Under the pieces are notes generated by a model. That model saw only the letters and a list, made by a program, of their open reading frames with translations, did not search any database and was not told the DNA's origin. 32,000 bases of DNA from an uncultured archaeon (lineage in GTDB: Archaea > Micrarchaeota > Micrarchaeia > Micrarchaeales > CABMGC01), in contig OY969902.1 of NCBI GenBank assembly GCA_963704435.1, forward strand, positions 240,001-272,000, in the 5' to 3' direction. Made by a program: the position numbers and the translations under genes. Below, piece by piece: positions 3,098-10,401 of this stretch (position 1 is its first letter; each line of letters begins with the position of its first letter).

Positions 3098-4525
3098 TTG
3101 GCGAAGGAAATCAAGGGAATCGTCACCTGCATAAGGCACCGCGCGGGCCTTTCGGGCGACGACTACTTCATCGTGGCGGAGGAGGGCGGGGCGCTATCTA
3201 CGCTGCCGCTGAAGAGCGGGACGCTACTGAACATCGGAGAGTTCATGAAATTCTCAGTCGAGGAGGGAGCTGTGAAAGGCGCATGGCCAGCCGAGGACGG
3301 GAAGGACCTCGCAAGGATACGCGCCATAATAGACGAGCGGGAGGAGGACCTGCGCTCCGACAGGTACCGGACAGGGATCGACGAGGTTGACGGGATCACG
3401 TCGCGCATGTGGGAGCCGCTCTCCAGGGCCGCTTCCCTGCTGCTGCGGAAGCTGGCGGTCGCGGCCCCGATCACGGTCAGGTTCCACAACGACATCGACG
3501 GGGCATGCGGGGCCTTCTGCCTGAACAAGGCGATGGCGGATGCCGTCTCCAAGACGGGTAAGGACGGCTACTCGCCCAACATCCACTGGCGGATGCACGG
3601 CGGGGTGTCGTACGGAAGGATAGAGGCGACGAGCGACACGCTCGTGATGAACAACTACGAGTGCATCGAGAAGCCGCTGCTCGTGATACTAGACTTCGGG
3701 ACCGCGAAGGAGAGCAACCCGGGCGTGGATCTCGTCAGGGACAGGTTCGACATCATATGGCTGGACCACCATCCGATGGTCGACGGGTTCCAGGGAAGGG
3801 AGCTCAGCCACTACGTCAATCCGTGGCTCTTCGGCGGCGACTCCAACTACACGGCGGGGTTCCTGACGTGCGCATTCTCGAAGACGTTCGCGGACGTGGA
3901 TTCGCGCGACATAGAGAACGCGTCGTTCATCGGGGACTACAGCACATACGCGCGCCCTGATGAGGGAAGCAGGAGGCTGGCCGCGCTGCTCGACCTGATA
4001 ACGAGCGACACGAAGCTGGTGAACGGATCCGGGGGCGACAGCCTAGACCCGGCGCAGATAGAGGCGATGCTGAACGACGGGAAGAGGAGCGCTGACCTCA
4101 TCGCGTTCGCGGAGAACAGGGTCGCAGAGATGCTCGACACCGCACTGCGCTCCGTGAAAGTCTACAGCGGGAGCGAGGCGAAGATATACGTCGCGGACTT
4201 CGAGACCTTGAGGGGTGAGGAGGGGCACAGGTATCCGCTTCCTGGAAGGTTCGCATCGAAGCTGCTTGACAGGATAGAGGAGCTGAACACGGCCCCGTGC
4301 ATACTCCTGCTGCACTTCAAGTCATTCATATCGATAAGGATGAGCAAGCGGCTATCGGACAGCGTGGGCCTGCTGGAGGTGCTCGCGAAGGTGGGGGAGG
4401 AGCATCCTGACGACGTCGACTCGAGCGGCGGGCACAGCAACGCCGCGAGCATAAAGCTGAGGGGTGATTCGAGCAAGAAGGAGATAATAAAGGCGGTCGT
4501 CGACAAGCTCAAGGAGAGGGCGTAG
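3098..4525 (+). CDS. DHH/DHHA1 family phosphoesterase, archaeal RecJ/GAN-like
   Basis: DHH motifs are present: HNDIDGACGAF (motif I), LVILDFG (II), IIWLDHHPM (III) and the DHHA1 motif SSGGHSNAAS. TTG start; the nearby ATG at 3093 is out of frame. Confidence 0.8.
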   Translation: MAKEIKGIVTCIRHRAGLSGDDYFIVAEEGGALSTLPLKSGTLLNIGEFMKFSVEEGAVKGAWPAEDGKDLARIRAIIDEREEDLRSDRYRTGIDEVDGITSRMWEPLSRAASLLLRKLAVAAPITVRFHNDIDGACGAFCLNKAMADAVSKTGKDGYSPNIHWRMHGGVSYGRIEATSDTLVMNNYECIEKPLLVILDFGTAKESNPGVDLVRDRFDIIWLDHHPMVDGFQGRELSHYVNPWLFGGDSNYTAGFLTCAFSKTFADVDSRDIENASFIGDYSTYARPDEGSRRLAALLDLITSDTKLVNGSGGDSLDPAQIEAMLNDGKRSADLIAFAENRVAEMLDTALRSVKVYSGSEAKIYVADFETLRGEEGHRYPLPGRFASKLLDRIEELNTAPCILLLHFKSFISIRMSKRLSDSVGLLEVLAKVGEEHPDDVDSSGGHSNAASIKLRGDSSKKEIIKAVVDKLKERA

Positions 4526-4548
4526 AAGCCTGGTACCCGGACATAGCG

Positions 4549-4734
4549 AAGGTGCTGACTAAGTACTACGGCTATGCCGCGAAGAGCAGGAAGGGCAGCC
4601 ATGTTTAGATGGCTGACGCATCGGGTCACAGGGTCACAATCCTTGCGACAAACGAGCAAGTGAACAGGCATAACTACCAATCGATACTGAGGCAAACAGG
4701 TCTTTCTAAGGCAGACATAGAAAAATACCTCTGA
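4549..4734 (+). pseudogene. hicA: HicA-like toxin remnant interrupted by an in-frame TAG, with no ATG start
   Basis: One frame reads KVLTKYYGYAAKSRKGSHV*MADASGHRVTILATNEQVNRHNYQSILRQTGLSKADIEKYL*. This matches the HicA/YcfA pattern (L.k.G...vr.kGSH...h.....vt.p.h...l..gt..sIlkq.Gls..ef). TAG is at 4606-4608. There is no ATG upstream in frame, and the frame runs into the preceding gene. Confidence 0.6.
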
Positions 4735-4776
4735 GGCATCTTATCTCATGCTGAATAGCGAAACCTGCCTTGCGGA

Positions 4777-5370
4777 CTACGCCTTGCCCAGCTCGGGATG
4801 CTCCGCCTCGAACTCCGCCTGCCATTCGCGGAACTCCGCGAGCTTCTTCTTCTCGGCGGCGCCCATTTTCTTCTCGTACTTCGCCTTCATCCCCCTCTCC
4901 CACTCCTCGAGCGTGAATCCGTAAGGCGGCCTCTCTCGTATCGTCTTCGGGCTGTAGTAGCGACCGTAGACCTCTCTGTAGTAGTCGATCTCCCTCGACT
5001 CCGCCTTCGCGGCGTCGGCGTGCACGCCCTCGTTAGCGAGGAAATCCACGATGCCCTTCAGGCTTATCTTCTCGTTCCTGTTCGCGGCGTCCTCTGGATT
5101 GTACAGCACCCGTATGGTCCGTCCTTCGAAATCGACGGACGCCATGAGCACCGGCTCCATCAGGATCAGCCGGTACTGCAGCCTCGCCGCGCGCTCCGCA
5201 TCCTTGAGCCCGTCCCCGCTCGCGTTCTTGAAGACGACCTCCCTCACCTTCTTGTACGGGACCATGTACTTCCCGCCGTTGTCCTCGATGTACTCGCTGC
5301 TCGCGCTCAGTTCTGCGCCGCTGTTCTTGGCGTAGAAGCTTCTGTAATCCCTCTCGCGCTTGTCCATCAA
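4777..5370 (-). CDS. Hypothetical protein (197 aa), co-transcribed downstream of the radical SAM gene
   Basis: It starts 6 nt after the stop of the upstream minus-strand gene. Host-like composition. No family recognised. The C-terminus is charged and helical (KKMGAAEKKKLAEFREWQAEFEAEHPE). Confidence 0.55.
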   Translation of the reverse strand: MMDKRERDYRSFYAKNSGAELSASSEYIEDNGGKYMVPYKKVREVVFKNASGDGLKDAERAARLQYRLILMEPVLMASVDFEGRTIRVLYNPEDAANRNEKISLKGIVDFLANEGVHADAAKAESREIDYYREVYGRYYSPKTIRERPPYGFTLEEWERGMKAKYEKKMGAAEKKKLAEFREWQAEFEAEHPELGKA

Positions 5371-5376
5371 ATTCCC

Positions 5377-7140
5377 CTATGCGTCATTCCCCGCTTGTGC
5401 AGGCCGCGAATTCACGGGCAGAGAGAACAGGTCTACGATGCTGCCGTAGGTCCGCTTGTACTCCTCCCTCGACTCAAGCTCCTGCACGTCTCTCCTGTAC
5501 TTGTCGGCCGCGTAGCTCCATCCAGGATGCAGCGCCGCCCACTCCTTGCTCGGTATCGCGTAAGCCCTCTGCACCTTGTCCCTGTACAGCTCGGGCATTA
5601 CGTTGAACGTGCAGAACGGCACGGTCCTCCCGTCCGGGAGCGTGTAATGGACCTCGCACTTCTCGACCCTCTTTATGTCATAGTTGTACTCGTCCTGGAA
5701 ATGCATCATGCCGAGGAACAGAGTCTTCATCTGCAGGTCGGCCATGCTCTTGAAGTCGTGCTTGGTCAGTATGCCGGTGAGCAGCTTCGCGAAGTTCACC
5801 GACTTGGGCTGCTTTTCCTTGTCTATGAACTTGAGCGCGCCCGCGAGGGTCTTGGCCGCGATGAGCTTGCGCTCTATCATGCTCTTGCCCTCCATCTCGC
5901 CTGTCGCATTCTGGAGGTGTTCGACCAGCCCCGCGGCGTCGACGAACCTGGTTATCGGTATCACCCTGTTGTCGCTGTCGAGGAACAGGTAGGTGCCCGC
6001 ACCGCACGCGAAGTGCGTGGACAGGTCGTACTTGTACTCCCCGGTGAGCGCCTCGAGGAACTTGTTTATCCCGCCCGTGTACGGCACCGAGAACCAGTCC
6101 TCCCTCGCGACCACGCCATGGGTCTGCTCCTCTATGAGCTTTATCGCGCCGGGGATCGTTATCCTCTGCCTCTCCCTCTGGCCGGTCGGCATCCTCCCGA
6201 CCAGCGATACCGGCTGGAAGTTGATCGCCCTCACGATGTCGAGGTTGTTGAGCGCGAAGTTCACCATCGCGCCGAGCTCGTTGTCGTTCGACGTCCTTAT
6301 CACGGTCGGAGTCAGCACGATCCCTATCCCCGCCTTCCTTGCCGCGCTGAGTATGAGCGGTATCTCCCAGTGGTTCTTCGGGTTCGCCCTCTTGCTCACT
6401 CCGTCGAAGCTCATGTATAGCGTGCTGACCCCCTCGTGCCTCAGCCGCACCATGAGGTCCGGGTCGAAGCCGAGCCGTATCGCGGTTGTGTTCAGCTGTA
6501 TCTGGTCGAAGCCCGCCTCCTTCGCCTTCCTCACTATCTCGGGCAGGTCGGCCCTCATGGTCGGCTCCCCGCCGGTGAGCTGTATCGCGTTGGAGGCCAC
6601 GGGCTTCTGCGCCCTGAGCTTCCTGAACATGCGGTCCAGCTCGTCGAGCGTGGGCTCATATATCGGCTCGTTGCGCTGATCCATGGTGCCGAAGAAGCAG
6701 TAGCTGCAGGAGAGGTGGCAGCGGTTCGTCACCACGACGTTTATCAGGCCGCTGTGCGACTTGTGCCTCTCGCATATGCCGCAGTCGAACGGGCAGTTCT
6801 TGCCCTCGTTGACGTAATCGGGATTGTCGAGCCCCCTTCCGTCATAGTTGTACTTCTTCATCTTCGCGTACATGTCATAGTCCTCCCAGTACTTCTCGAC
6901 GGTCAGGCCGTGCTCCGGGCAGCGCTTCCTTATCATGACGAAGTCCCCGTCGCGGTACAGAATACCGTCGATGATCAGCTTGCACTCCGGGCAGATCGTC
7001 TTCGTCCTGTCGACGACGGGCATCCGCTCCATCTCCTCGGCGGTCCTGTAGTAGGGCGCGGTAAGAGGATCGTGCGCCTCACTGCCGCTCGCATGCACGT
7101 GCGCATCCGTGGATTTGGCATCGCCATGGCCGGAAATCAT
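5377..7140 (-). CDS. Radical SAM enzyme of the MJ0619 / tetraether lipid synthase (Tes, GDGT-MAS)-like family
   Basis: N-terminal zinc ribbon (CPECKLIIDGILYRDGDFVMIRKRCPEHG), then CPFDCGICERH, then the radical SAM motif NRCHLSCSYCFF (CxxxCxxC). The C-terminus reads CEVHYTLPDGRTVPFCTFN. The radical SAM assignment is firm. The Tes-family assignment comes from remembered family architecture. Confidence 0.7.
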   Translation of the reverse strand: MISGHGDAKSTDAHVHASGSEAHDPLTAPYYRTAEEMERMPVVDRTKTICPECKLIIDGILYRDGDFVMIRKRCPEHGLTVEKYWEDYDMYAKMKKYNYDGRGLDNPDYVNEGKNCPFDCGICERHKSHSGLINVVVTNRCHLSCSYCFFGTMDQRNEPIYEPTLDELDRMFRKLRAQKPVASNAIQLTGGEPTMRADLPEIVRKAKEAGFDQIQLNTTAIRLGFDPDLMVRLRHEGVSTLYMSFDGVSKRANPKNHWEIPLILSAARKAGIGIVLTPTVIRTSNDNELGAMVNFALNNLDIVRAINFQPVSLVGRMPTGQRERQRITIPGAIKLIEEQTHGVVAREDWFSVPYTGGINKFLEALTGEYKYDLSTHFACGAGTYLFLDSDNRVIPITRFVDAAGLVEHLQNATGEMEGKSMIERKLIAAKTLAGALKFIDKEKQPKSVNFAKLLTGILTKHDFKSMADLQMKTLFLGMMHFQDEYNYDIKRVEKCEVHYTLPDGRTVPFCTFNVMPELYRDKVQRAYAIPSKEWAALHPGWSYAADKYRRDVQELESREEYKRTYGSIVDLFSLPVNSRPAQAGNDA

Positions 7141-7208: not shown

Positions 7209-8798
7209 TCACTCTGGCTTGCGCTTCTTCTTCCCCTTGAACCCGGTCTTGGCGCCGCTCCTGAAGCCGCCTTCGCGGCTCGGATAAGGCTTGCGCGGGA
7301 AACCTCCCTCGCGGTTTGAGTATGACCTCCTCTGAGGGAAGCCACCGCCTTCGCGGTTCTGGTAGGGTCTCCTCTCCGAGAAGCTGCTTCCTTCGCGGTT
7401 CTGGTAGGGCCTCCTCTGCGGGAAACCGCCCTCGCGATCGGAGTATGGCCTTCGCGGGAAGCCGCTTCCTTCGCGGTTCTGGTAGGGTCTCCTCTCCTGG
7501 AAGCCGCCTCCCTCGCGGTTCTGGTATGGCCTGCGCTGGAAATTCCCTTCGCGATTCTGGTATGGTCTGCGCGGAAAACTTCCGCCTTCGCGGTTCTGGT
7601 AGGGCCTTCTCTCCTGGAAGCTGCCTCCTTCGCGATTCTGGTAGGGCCTCCGCGGGAAACTGCCGCTCTCCCTGTTTTGGTAGGGCCTTCTCTCCTGGAA
7701 GCTGCCTCCTTCGCGGTTCTGGTAGGGCCTCCTCTGCGGGAATCCCTCTTCGCGCCTGCTGCTGTCATAGCTCTTCCTGAAGCCGCCCGCCCTCTCGCCC
7801 TCCTGCGAATATTTCCTGTACTGCGGAGCGCCTTCCCTCGGATAGGCCTTCTCCCCTTGCGGCCGGTATGGCCGGCTGGCCTGACCTTGAGCGCGCATCA
7901 CCGTCCTGGGCTTCCACTCCTGCCTCTGCCTCTGGTACTGCTGCGGCTGCTCGGGACCGCGCTCCCTAGGAGGCGACGCGTTTATGCGCGCGATGCCCTT
8001 GTCGAGCGACTCCTTCAGCGTCTCGCCTATGAACCTCTTCGAGATCGAGTCCGCCCGCGCGGCTATGCTGATCTTCGTCGCGAAGATCCTCGCTATCTTG
8101 CCCTTGTTGCCGCGGTCCGCGCTCGCGACCTCCTTCAGCTTGAACAGTATCCCGTACTTGGGCGGCTTGCTCCCGGAGCGCAGGTGCCTGAAGAGCGCCT
8201 TCTCCGCGCCGAGCAGCTGTATCGTGCTCGCCGGCATGTCGGCAAGCTTGGAGAGCGAGCCCGCCTTGGCCAGCAGCTCCGCCGCGACCTTGTAATCGAC
8301 CAGGTAGGCTATGTTCGGCATCGACTTCGGCACGTTCTCCTTCAGGAACTCGTCGAGCTCCTTCTCGAGCGCGAAGAGGCCCAGCTCGGTCTCGGCCATG
8401 CTCTTCATGACGAGGTACTCGTCCTCCTTCGGCTCGTTGCCTATGCTGTTCTTTATCAGCTCGAGTATGTCATCGGCCCGGTCCTTGGCCACCTTCCTTA
8501 GCGAATCAGCGCTGGCGCCCCTCTTGTCGGACCCCGCCTCCATGACGAATTTCGCGTACGCCTCCGCGCTGCCGAGGTCGAGCTCGGGGAAGTATATACC
8601 GTACCACTCCTCGAGCCTCTCGTGGAGCAGGTTCCTGTTGCGCTCCACCTCGTTGTAGGAGTTGATGGCCTGGGCGAGCGCGTGCTCCCCCGTGGAATAG
8701 GCTTCGCTCACCGCCTCCTTCGCGAGCGACAGTATCCTCTTCCTCTTCTCCTCGGGCGTCTCAGCCAAAATAAGCACCAGGATTAATTGGAATCGCAC
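7209..8798 (-). CDS. Nop5/Nop56-58-like (NOSIC + Nop domain) protein with a very short N-terminus and a long repetitive R/Y/Q/N/G-rich C-terminal tail
   Basis: Motifs: LHERLEEWYGIYFPEL (NOSIC), MPNIAYLVDYKVAAELLAKAGSLSKLADMPASTIQLLGAEKALFRHL, PKYGILF and NKGKIARIFATKISIAARAD. The listed start is GTG at 8798. GTG at 8777 or TTG at 8768 are alternatives, given a TATA-like ATATTTATAGG on the minus strand at about 8801-8811. Confidence 0.8.
   Translation of the reverse strand: MRFQLILVLILAETPEEKRKRILSLAKEAVSEAYSTGEHALAQAINSYNEVERNRNLLHERLEEWYGIYFPELDLGSAEAYAKFVMEAGSDKRGASADSLRKVAKDRADDILELIKNSIGNEPKEDEYLVMKSMAETELGLFALEKELDEFLKENVPKSMPNIAYLVDYKVAAELLAKAGSLSKLADMPASTIQLLGAEKALFRHLRSGSKPPKYGILFKLKEVASADRGNKGKIARIFATKISIAARADSISKRFIGETLKESLDKGIARINASPPRERGPEQPQQYQRQRQEWKPRTVMRAQGQASRPYRPQGEKAYPREGAPQYRKYSQEGERAGGFRKSYDSSRREEGFPQRRPYQNREGGSFQERRPYQNRESGSFPRRPYQNREGGSFQERRPYQNREGGSFPRRPYQNREGNFQRRPYQNREGGGFQERRPYQNREGSGFPRRPYSDREGGFPQRRPYQNREGSSFSERRPYQNREGGGFPQRRSYSNREGGFPRKPYPSREGGFRSGAKTGFKGKKKRKPE
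7266..7742 (-). repeat. 12 tandem in-frame repeats of 36-42 bp encoding F(P/Q)(Q/E)RRPYQNREGG(S/G)
   Basis: Read directly from the translation: FPQRRPYQNREGGS, FQERRPYQNRESGS, FPRRPYQNREGGS and so on to FPRKPYPSREGG. The units total 159 aa (477 nt). They are followed by an 18-aa Lys-rich end (FRSGAKTGFKGKKKRKPE). Confidence 0.9.
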
Positions 8799-8907
8799 CT
8801 ATAAATATGTTACCGACCGAGGCAGAGCGCGCAAAAGGCGGAGCCAGCCAACCATTATAATTTTTGCTTACTGATAATACTATACTTATATCGTAGGGTC
8901 TGAGCAC

Positions 8908-10401
8908 ATGAACATGGACGATCTGCTTGCTTTCACCAAGAGCAAGGGCTTCTTCTGGCCTAGCGCGGAGATATACGGCGGATTCGCGGGGATGTACGAC
9001 TACGGCCACCTGGGCGCGCTCCTGAAGAGGCGGTTCGAGCAGCTCTGGCTATCCTATTTCGTGGAGACGAAAGCGGATTACTACCTGATAGACTGCTCCA
9101 CCATACTGCCCGAGAAGCCGCTGGTCGCCTCGGGGCACGCCGCGCGATTCAACGACATCCTCGTGGGGTGCTCGAAGTGCCACACCTACTACCGGGCGGA
9201 CGTCATGCTGTCCGACTTCAAGATAAAGGTGTCTGAGGGCGCGAGCCCCGCCGAGATCGACGGGCTGATAAGCAAAAACGGCGTCGCGTGCCCCAAATGC
9301 CAGGGGAAGTTCCTGCCCTCGAAAGAGTTCAACATGATGCTTGACGTGCATCTCGGGCCCGAGAAGTCGGACAAGGGCTACCTGAGGCCGGAGACCGCGC
9401 AATCGGCATACCTCAACTTCTTCAGGGAGTTCAACGTTCTGCGCAGGAGCCTGCCGATGGGCCTTGCGGTGATCGGGAAGGCCTACCGGAACGAGATATC
9501 GCCGCGCCAGGGCCTTTACAGGATGAGGGAGCTGACCCAGGCAGAACTCCAGATTTTCTTCGACCCAGAAGAATTCGAGGCGGATTTCGACAAGCTGAAG
9601 AATGTCGAGATGACGGTCGTACCCTACAAGACGAAGAAGCAGGTCACCATAACCGCGGAGGAATTGGTGAGGGATTACGAGATTCCAGAGTTCTACGCCT
9701 ACCACATGGCTGCGATAAGGCTCTTTTACCAAAAAGTAATAGGCCTCCCGGACGAGAAGCTCAGGTTCCTGGAGAAGGGAGGGGACGAGAAGGCGTTCTA
9801 CAACAAGCTTCACATGGACATAGAGGTCGATGTGGAGAGCTGGGGCGGATTCAAGGAGGTCGGAGGGCTGCACTATAGGGGAGATTACGACCTAAGCTCC
9901 CACACGAAGGGCTCGAACACGGACCTCTCCGTTACGATAAACGGGAAGAAGATAGTGCCGCAGGTCCTTGAACTCAGCTTCGGGGTGGACAGGAACGTCT
10001 GGATGCTCATAGACGTCTTCTACAAGAAGGAAGGGGAGAGGAAGGTCCTGGCCTTGAAGCCTTGGCTAGCTCCTTTCAACGCAGCAATATTCGCGCTGCA
10101 GAAGGACGAGAAGATAAATGAAAAGGTGAGGAGCGTATCGGACTCCCTTAAACAGAAATTCAGGGTCTTCGTCGACGACTCGGGCTCCATAGGCAGGAGA
10201 TATGCCAGGATGGACGAGATAGGCACCCCGTTCTGCATAACTGTGGACTTCGACACCGTGACCGAGAGTTCCAAAGATTACGATACAGTAACCGTGAGGG
10301 ACAGGGACACGAAAACGCAGGAGAGGATAAAGATAGACAAACTTGCGGAATTTATAGGAGACCGGATAAACCCTCAAAGCCTGGAGCCTTACCCGCAGTA
10401 G
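8908..10401 (+). CDS. glyS: Glycine--tRNA ligase (class II, archaeal/eukaryotic dimeric type)
   Basis: The N-terminus KSKGFFWPSAEIYGGFAGMYDYGHLGALLKRRFEQLW is diagnostic for GlyRS. Also present: a zinc-ribbon insertion CSKCHTYYRAD...CPKCQGKF, the class II motif YRNEISPRQGLYRMRELTQAE, and a C-terminal anticodon-binding region IGRRYARMDEIGTPFCITVD. Confidence 0.9.
   Translation: MNMDDLLAFTKSKGFFWPSAEIYGGFAGMYDYGHLGALLKRRFEQLWLSYFVETKADYYLIDCSTILPEKPLVASGHAARFNDILVGCSKCHTYYRADVMLSDFKIKVSEGASPAEIDGLISKNGVACPKCQGKFLPSKEFNMMLDVHLGPEKSDKGYLRPETAQSAYLNFFREFNVLRRSLPMGLAVIGKAYRNEISPRQGLYRMRELTQAELQIFFDPEEFEADFDKLKNVEMTVVPYKTKKQVTITAEELVRDYEIPEFYAYHMAAIRLFYQKVIGLPDEKLRFLEKGGDEKAFYNKLHMDIEVDVESWGGFKEVGGLHYRGDYDLSSHTKGSNTDLSVTINGKKIVPQVLELSFGVDRNVWMLIDVFYKKEGERKVLALKPWLAPFNAAIFALQKDEKINEKVRSVSDSLKQKFRVFVDDSGSIGRRYARMDEIGTPFCITVDFDTVTESSKDYDTVTVRDRDTKTQERIKIDKLAEFIGDRINPQSLEPYPQ

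Follow-up and report, generated by a model that had tools for sequence, protein, structure and literature searches.

Can a Nop5 protein that has no domain for holding fibrillarin still organize box C/D guide RNAs into ribonucleoproteins (RNPs)? The question is raised by a gene in a 32,000-nucleotide stretch of archaeal DNA (positions 240,001 to 272,000 of contig OY969902.1; this whole stretch is referred to here as the window), which belongs to a single-contig genome of 853 kb that is 92% complete and has its relatives in the Micrarchaeota, a DPANN phylum. The gene, nop5 (aNOP56-like), lies on the minus strand at 7209-8768, running from a probable TTG start at 8768 to a TGA stop at 7209-7211, and encodes 519 amino acids (aa). 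We think it probable that its product is the sole Nop5 orthologue of this genome, in the form typical of Micrarchaeota, and that it still scaffolds C/D small RNPs (sRNPs), with fibrillarin taking part by a non-canonical route. Coordinates of nop5 and its neighbors are window positions, while those of small RNAs (sRNAs), tRNAs, fibrillarin and L7Ae refer to the whole-genome contig; residues are counted from the TTG at 8768 unless the numbering of the 529-aa open reading frame (ORF) is stated.

A Nop5 homologue without the fibrillarin-binding domain

The ORF and the Nop core recognized in an earlier note on this DNA are real. The only Pfam domain in the protein, Nop (PF01798), was found at ORF residues 49-269 (529-aa numbering) with 175.9 bits (E 1e-51; cut-off 25.4 bits), and QLLGAEKALFRHL...PKYG is invariant across 60 aligned sequences. 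When the genome was searched for a second, full-length Nop5, as the note had advised, exactly one Nop-domain gene was found in the 853 kb. The note had also proposed that the N-terminal domain (NTD), which binds fibrillarin, is missing, and comparison with the PDB by phmmer bears this out: archaeal Nop5 structures were matched with E values of 1e-44 to 1e-55, over the coiled coil and the Nop domain only. ORF residues 20-272 (529-aa numbering; 10-262 from the TTG) correspond to residues 107/120-375 of P. furiosus Nop5, and ORF residues 40-272 (529-aa numbering) to residues 139-374 of S. solfataricus Nop5. The protein begins with a conserved linker helix, ETxEEKRxRLLxLAKxxVxxAYSTGEH (residues 1-38; 8655-8768, minus strand), which is seen both in the alignment and in an AlphaFold2 (AF2) model, where its predicted local distance difference test score (pLDDT) is 85-92. 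This helix aligns with residues ~107/120-140 of P. furiosus Nop5, that is, past the aromatic cluster that contacts fibrillarin (interface residues from PMC7962484).

The coiled coil, which had been reported as missing along with the NTD, turned out to be predicted with confidence. In the AF2 model, built from a 60-sequence alignment, residues 1-265 are all-helical with pLDDT >90, rising above 95 in the coiled-coil helices and tip. The coiled-coil domain comprises residues 28-149 (8322-8687, minus strand), with helices at 28-57 and 115-149 and inserted tip helices at 68-106, and LHERLEEWYGIYFPEL sits within the first of these helices. The C-terminal Nop domain, delimited by Pfam, alignment, AF2 and Foldseek, follows at residues 150-265 (7974-8321, minus strand) and contains QLLGAEKALFRHL...PKYG. 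Foldseek matched the model to 3nvi_A with a target-normalized template modeling (TM) score of 0.88 (root-mean-square deviation 2.1 Å) and to 3icx_A (S. solfataricus Nop5 135-380) with a TM score of 0.86, and the helices also superpose on 3pla_A. The two that match most completely, 3nvi_A and 3icx_A, are Nop5 constructs with an engineered N-terminal truncation. On the strength of the alignments and the model, the coiled coil is present and the sole missing part is the fibrillarin-binding NTD of ~115 aa; Nop5 would be expected to dimerize through the predicted coiled coil, and its Nop domain, the module that binds L7Ae/kink-turn (K-turn) and guide RNA, would be expected to do so here.

Archaeal Nop5/aNOP56 proteins of known structure (S. 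solfataricus 3ID5/3PLA and P. furiosus 2NNW/3NMU, with the NTD-deleted 3NVI and 3ICX) share this fold at 37-42% identity, including the GAEKALFRH/PKYG motifs. What sets the window protein apart from them is that it is naturally without the NTD, that its gene is unlinked to that of fibrillarin, and that it carries a disordered repeat tail, as predicted, where they have a short Lys-rich end. Among the features that define Nop5/Nop56/Nop58 proteins, it therefore has the Nop domain, the coiled coil and co-occurring fibrillarin, L7Ae and C/D guides, for which it is the sole Nop5 copy, and lacks the N-terminal fibrillarin-binding domain.

The missing domain is not hidden upstream. Read from its first GTG (8798), the ORF (7209-8798, minus strand) has 529 aa, and directly upstream of that GTG an in-frame TAG at 8799-8801, which overlaps a TATA-like TTTATA at 8800-8805, closes the frame. 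A divergent glycyl-tRNA synthetase (GlyRS) gene, identified from the ORF list and a Pfam scan, starts at 8908 (8908-10401, plus strand). No N-terminal extension can therefore be encoded, in agreement with the note's claim of a short N-terminus without upstream coding space. The true start is most likely the TTG at 8768, judging from the position of the TTTATA, from a Shine-Dalgarno-like GGTG 6 nt upstream of the TTG that matches the 3′ end of 16S rRNA (GAUCACCUC), and from the orthologues, including more distant ones, which begin M-[AV]-E-T-x-E-E-K-R at the residue aligned with this codon. The neighboring radical S-adenosylmethionine (radical-SAM) gene uses AGGTG likewise. Counted from the TTG, 47 residues precede LHERLEEWY.

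The note implied that such a protein was unique. In a scan of a genome collection that yielded 78 Micrarchaeota nop5 loci, however, an N-terminus of this kind proved to be the norm: at loci with an intact upstream region (loci cut by a contig end are excluded from these counts), a stop-free run of only 0-65 codons leads up to the aligned first residue, and fibrillarin is encoded within 3 kb of nop5 at none of the 78. The same scan of a Nezhaarchaeota outgroup gave 134 aa upstream, recognized by Pfam as the archaeal NTD, and a fibrillarin gene immediately downstream. To judge from these loci, loss of the NTD and unlinking of nop5 from fibrillarin is lineage-wide and not particular to the window gene, and an ancestor of the lineage would have lost both the folded docking domain and the gene linkage. 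Our survey of the literature on Nop5 in Micrarchaeota, on DPANN fibrillarin and on truncated Nop5 found no description of an NTD-less variant; in a preprint on how Nop5 evolved, loss of the NTD is noted for eukaryotic Prp31 alone (PMC11213020).

Some further observations concern Nop5 in other archaea and the surroundings of the gene. Many Thermoplasmatota Nop5 proteins (loci L141, L145 and L147-L156) match the Nop model at profile positions ~75-227 only; they have a short coiled coil without the tip, as in A. fulgidus, and retain an NTD that begins with a conserved TxWFGxFL. In one Methanomassiliicoccales genome (G165), ~8 kb separate nop5 from the fibrillarin gene. The nop5 neighborhood in the window (5377-7140, minus strand, and 8908-10401, plus strand) is partly conserved in Micrarchaeota. 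Over 79 nop5 loci we found a divergent GlyRS gene at 43, an Ogg-like glycosylase gene at 33, and a zinc-ribbon radical-SAM (HMPTM/Tes-like) gene at 25, accompanied by a partner of ~200 aa at 18.

Fibrillarin, L7Ae and box C/D guide RNAs

The partners of Nop5 are encoded in the genome, which answers another check proposed in the note. A fibrillarin gene at 657777-658424 is full length (254.8 bits), its product can be aligned from end to end with the P. furiosus counterpart (E 8e-59), and there are L7Ae-family genes at 56515 and 51393. None of the fibrillarin, L7Ae and C/D sRNA genes is adjacent to nop5. Fibrillarin was detected in 150 of 151 sampled Micrarchaeota genomes. Reading the fibrillarin alignment by eye, we found that Tyr 95 corresponds to P. 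furiosus Y102, a residue of the Nop5 interface, and that an Ala stands in the place of P. furiosus R138, which bonds Nop5 E7 and whose position is variable among archaea (PMC7962484).

Guide RNAs were sought with a scored scan for C/D′/C′/D arrangements (threshold at least 19 of 21), which was also applied to four Markov-shuffled genomes. Five matches, four of them distinct, were obtained in the genome, compared with 0-1 per shuffled genome. Three candidate C/D sRNAs are placed in short intergenic gaps and are kept across several Micrarchaeota genera, with two of them matching a second-family genome too; their boxes and guides are conserved and their flanks are not. A strict regular expression with 10-14 nt spacers found no sRNA in the genome because the actual D′ spacer is 9 nt, relaxed C/D motif counts alone were not above chance, and the Rfam model snoPyro_CD gave sub-threshold matches only (18 bits), two of which are among the later candidates.

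The first candidate (594407-594455, minus strand) reads GTGATGA-9 nt-CTGA-7 nt-TGATGA-AGATCTTGAGTT-CTGA. Its invariant D guide forms 12 of 12 base pairs, one of them G.U, with the tRNA-Leu(CAA) anticodon arm and pairs equally well with a Ser(CGA)-like tRNA. In both tRNAs the wobble base, C34, occupies the fifth paired position, where methylation would be placed; we take C34 to be a usual site of 2′-O-methylation (Nm). When the guides were shuffled, 11 of 3000 paired as well with any stable RNA. The second candidate (320264-320312, minus strand) is a double guide whose terminal stem, GUCC/GGAC, is conserved: the D guide corresponds to positions 2471-2482 of the large-subunit (LSU) rRNA at 12 of 12 positions (one G.U) and its D′ guide to LSU 2406-2415, two sites ~65 nt apart in domain V of 23S rRNA. 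The third (630622-630672, minus strand) has the invariant D guide GAGATAGGCGGT. Because the guides are conserved and have tRNA and 23S targets, RNA-guided targeting looks alive in a lineage without the canonical tether.

The two tRNAs have peculiarities of their own. The tRNA-Leu(CAA) gene (660906-661004, plus strand) is found by the Rfam tRNA model with 44 bits, was missed by ARAGORN, and appears to have an insertion of ~11-13 nt in its T-loop. A class II tRNA at 691014-691115 (minus strand) has the anticodon loop CUCGAGA (Ser-CGA), was called Arg(GCG) by ARAGORN, and appears to carry an intron of ~14 nt in its anticodon stem; both insertions would be non-canonical introns.

Alternatively, the protein may do what Prp31 does in the U4 small nuclear RNP (U4 snRNP), clamping L7Ae-K-turn RNAs without delivering a methyltransferase, in a role such as RNP stabilization or RNA chaperoning, while fibrillarin acts alone or with other partners. 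Prp31 (2OZB, 3SIU), which binds the 15.5K/L7Ae-type K-turn complex without a methyltransferase, has the same architecture of coiled coil, Nop domain and C-terminal extension with no NTD (PMC11213020). The unlinking of the nop5 and fibrillarin genes at all Micrarchaeota loci would also fit such a role, as would the Ala at the Nop5-contacting R138, although this position varies among archaea. However, the guides have a canonical geometry, with D guides of 12 nt and the fifth nucleotide falling on C34 and on 23S domain V, and they are conserved across genera; the interface Tyr is retained in fibrillarin; and the sequence is much nearer to Nop5 (E 1e-55) than to Prp31 (E 1e-18, 22-25% identity). 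We therefore consider this explanation highly unlikely. A Prp31 would be recognized by having its closest sequence relation to Prp31 and by an association with U4; the closest sequence relation here is to Nop5, and only the architecture is shared with Prp31. To our knowledge, no U4 snRNA or spliceosome is to be expected in an archaeal genome. The window gene rather appears to represent an independent, archaeal loss of the NTD, in which C/D guides and fibrillarin were kept.

A further possibility is that docking is split, and that a separate protein, either a diverged NTD or a new adaptor, holds fibrillarin in trans. The retention of fibrillarin in nearly all sampled genomes and the functional look of the guide RNAs would both be accommodated by this, and Nop5 NTDs are poorly conserved, so that a stand-alone NTD could escape detection: PF08156, PF21572 and PF21667 found none elsewhere in the genome, but these Pfam models are weak and pass their cut-offs in at most 1/4 control archaea. 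Because of this insensitivity we built our own NTD hidden Markov model (HMM) from 28 Nop5 sequences of Thermoplasmatota and Nezhaarchaeota. Against the genome it detected nothing beyond the linker helix of Nop5 itself (E 0.03), the next match having an E value of 0.43, and a region search with the Nezhaarchaeota NTD returned close relatives only. No conserved small ORF adjoins nop5 in 79 loci.

One candidate for such a partner is encoded next to fibrillarin. At 8 of 18 Micrarchaeota loci, which all belong to a single order, a gene for a protein of ~270-275 aa follows fibrillarin on its 3′ side with a gap of 0-80 nt or an overlap of 4 nt; in this genome it lies at 658519-659346 (plus strand; positions 4243-5070 of locus L124). 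The protein matches no Pfam family and consists of an N-terminal four-Cys zinc ribbon and a tetratricopeptide repeat (TPR)-like solenoid (AF2, pLDDT 84.5). It may act as a partner of fibrillarin. As a split-off NTD it was rejected, since its fold is a TPR solenoid and not the RNase-H-like fold of the NTD, and its restriction to one order contrasts with an NTD loss that is phylum-wide. Taken with the empty HMM search, this leaves docking in trans distinctly improbable in our estimation.

The C-terminal repeat arm

The low-complexity, basic C-terminal arm described in the note is confirmed, at a length of 255 aa (residues 265-519). It starts with a non-repetitive stretch rich in R, Q, P, E and Y (residues 266-345; 7734-7973, minus strand), delimited by composition and AF2, continues with twelve tandem units of the form RRPYQNREGGxF(P/Q)(E), each of 33-42 nt (11-14 aa; 7263-7733, minus strand), and ends in the Lys-rich GFKGKKKRKPE (7212-7244, minus strand), a basic end that closes nearly all tailed orthologues. 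Tandem Repeats Finder placed the array at 7266-7742, with periods of 42, 81 and 117 and 70-79% matches; the higher-order period is 27 aa (81 nt). The twelve units and KKKRK end that the note listed are thus real. Overall the arm contains 20% Arg, 13% Gly, 11% Pro, 11% Gln, 10% Glu and 13% Tyr plus Phe, with a pI of 11.1 and a net charge of about +33. It is predicted to be disordered, as pLDDT in the AF2 model falls below 55 from residue ~271 and below 50 for 293-519, without secondary structure.

The units had been described as near-identical and as the product of a recent expansion. This did not hold at the DNA level, where they are only 70-79% identical. The longest exact repeat in the array is 38 nt, and comparison of the nine-codon core between pairs of units gave 173 synonymous and 65 non-synonymous codon differences. 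The synonymous divergence and the limited identity indicate that the array is not a fresh expansion, and the peptide motif appears to have been maintained.

A mis-assembled repeat was itself named in the note as a possible refutation, and one may ask more broadly whether the gene is a truncated pseudogene, has been given a wrong start or owes its repeat to the assembly. Repeats of low complexity are in principle open to mis-assembly, and the start codon is not ATG. Nevertheless, the units can be told apart and the motif recurs in independently assembled orthologues, which makes an assembly artefact unlikely; the genome consists of one contig; more than 100 orthologues from independent assemblies share this N-terminus; and the core is strongly conserved and its fold confidently predicted. 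We regard artefact or decay as next to negligible.

The note compared the arm with the glycine-arginine-rich (GAR/RGG) or KKE/D tails of eukaryotic small nucleolar RNP (snoRNP) proteins. The resemblance is one of composition: the GAR/RGG tail of fibrillarin and the KKE/D tails of Nop56 and Nop58 are likewise disordered, basic, Arg/Gly/aromatic-rich arms on a C/D RNP protein. In its motifs the arm differs from both. It contains no RGG tripeptide, its recurring motif being REGG-x-F within the unit RRPYQNREGGxF, and no repeated KKE or KKD blocks, with a single terminal KGKKKRK; moreover, it is located on Nop5 rather than on fibrillarin. It therefore belongs to neither class. Only one other ORF in the genome has a comparable Arg/Gly/aromatic window, a DEAD-box helicase. 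This helicase (genome 277562-278932, plus strand, ~5.5 kb beyond the end of the window) has a C-terminal RGG/FGG tail.

We then considered how far the arm is shared. In a census of residues beyond the fold at 70 complete Micrarchaeota loci, tails had a median length of 26.5 aa and reached at least 100 aa in two cases; 14 orthologues had none. Pooled, these tails contain 26% Arg, 18% Gly and 9% aromatic residues, and some have true RGG runs (e.g., L070), so that a tail of this kind, too, is common in the phylum and not peculiar to the window protein. Genomes of the same genus encode tails of ~220 aa with other repeats (ERPAYRP.., ERPPFRK..), while the RPYQNREGG unit itself is found in the closest metagenomic relatives, in 10 copies in P0001 and five in P0002, compared with 12 in the window protein; the note's expectation that the arm differs in length between relatives was correct. 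By these comparisons, the repeat arm is a genus- or species-group-specific enlargement of the short tail commonly found in the phylum, and would have arisen when a 13-14-aa unit within that tail was tandemly amplified. In a few relatives (L044, L055 and P0156) a low-complexity Arg/Asn/Ser-rich arm seems to be located at the N-terminus instead, with 183 aa in P0156. The presence of an N-terminal arm in some NTD-less orthologues suggests that the function of the arm does not depend on its position.

Long arms and NTD loss go together more widely. Among the 150 best 50%-identity representatives in the database, we compared the 140 that align as a single stretch, setting two-stretch rows aside and counting as NTD-less those without an N-terminal overhang of at least 45 aa. 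The 57 NTD-less representatives have C-terminal tails with a median of 80 aa, 26 of them with at least 100 aa, whereas in the 83 with such an overhang the median is 15 aa and only one tail reaches 100 aa. The association is striking, with the reservation that the counts are not phylogenetically independent and that some rows may be fragments. Two NTD-less representatives carry a taxon label, namely Micrarchaeota and Ca. Bilamarchaeum.

How an NTD-less Nop5 may work, and why it matters

In our view, the window encodes a genuine NTD-less Nop5 that is typical of its lineage and whose basic tail has undergone a repeat expansion specific to the genus. As a working model, Nop5 would dimerize via its coiled coil, its Nop domain would clamp L7Ae-bound K-turns of box C/D guide RNAs, and the protein would in this way scaffold sRNPs on the guide RNAs of the genome, with fibrillarin reaching the guide-target duplex by a non-canonical route. 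The arm would most likely serve as a non-specific RNA-binding or RNP-concentrating element that adds affinity for substrates and perhaps brings in fibrillarin or target RNA.

Several points weigh against this model. Our analysis identified no alternative tether for fibrillarin, and for the third sRNA (630622-630672) no target of its invariant D guide was detectable. The tail cannot be a general replacement of the NTD, being absent in 14 of 70 Micrarchaeota orthologues. Finally, the NTD of Nop5/56/58 holds fibrillarin in every characterized archaeal and eukaryotic C/D RNP (PMC7962484), so that a methylating particle of the canonical type is not expected here.

A bolder version would be that in NTD-less lineages a disordered Arg/aromatic arm, C- or N-terminal, took over the job of the lost domain, recruiting fibrillarin and/or substrate RNA by fuzzy, condensate-like multivalent contacts. 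The excess of long tails among NTD-less proteins (26/57 versus 1/83) is a hint in this direction, weakened by the armless Micrarchaeota orthologues, and on balance we find this takeover unlikely. If it were true, DPANN archaea would possess a differently built machine for RNA-guided methylation, with a functional parallel in the GAR domain that eukaryotic fibrillarin carries.

NTD-deleted Nop5 constructs are not known to bind fibrillarin. In the Micrarchaeota, fibrillarin, L7Ae and conserved guides of canonical target geometry are all kept in the absence of the NTD tether. This may mean that fibrillarin is recruited in another way, that there is an adaptor still to be recognized, or that the guide RNPs have a role independent of methylation. 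The lineage offers a natural counterpart, in archaea, of the NTD loss behind Prp31 and, in its arms, a second parallel, to the disordered Arg/Gly-rich arms that snoRNP proteins of eukaryotes carry. That NTD loss and long, basic repeat arms recur together is a concrete lead to the function of such tails. For the C/D RNP field, the interest lies in how fibrillarin works with an NTD-less Nop5, and in whether a disordered arm compensates for the missing domain.

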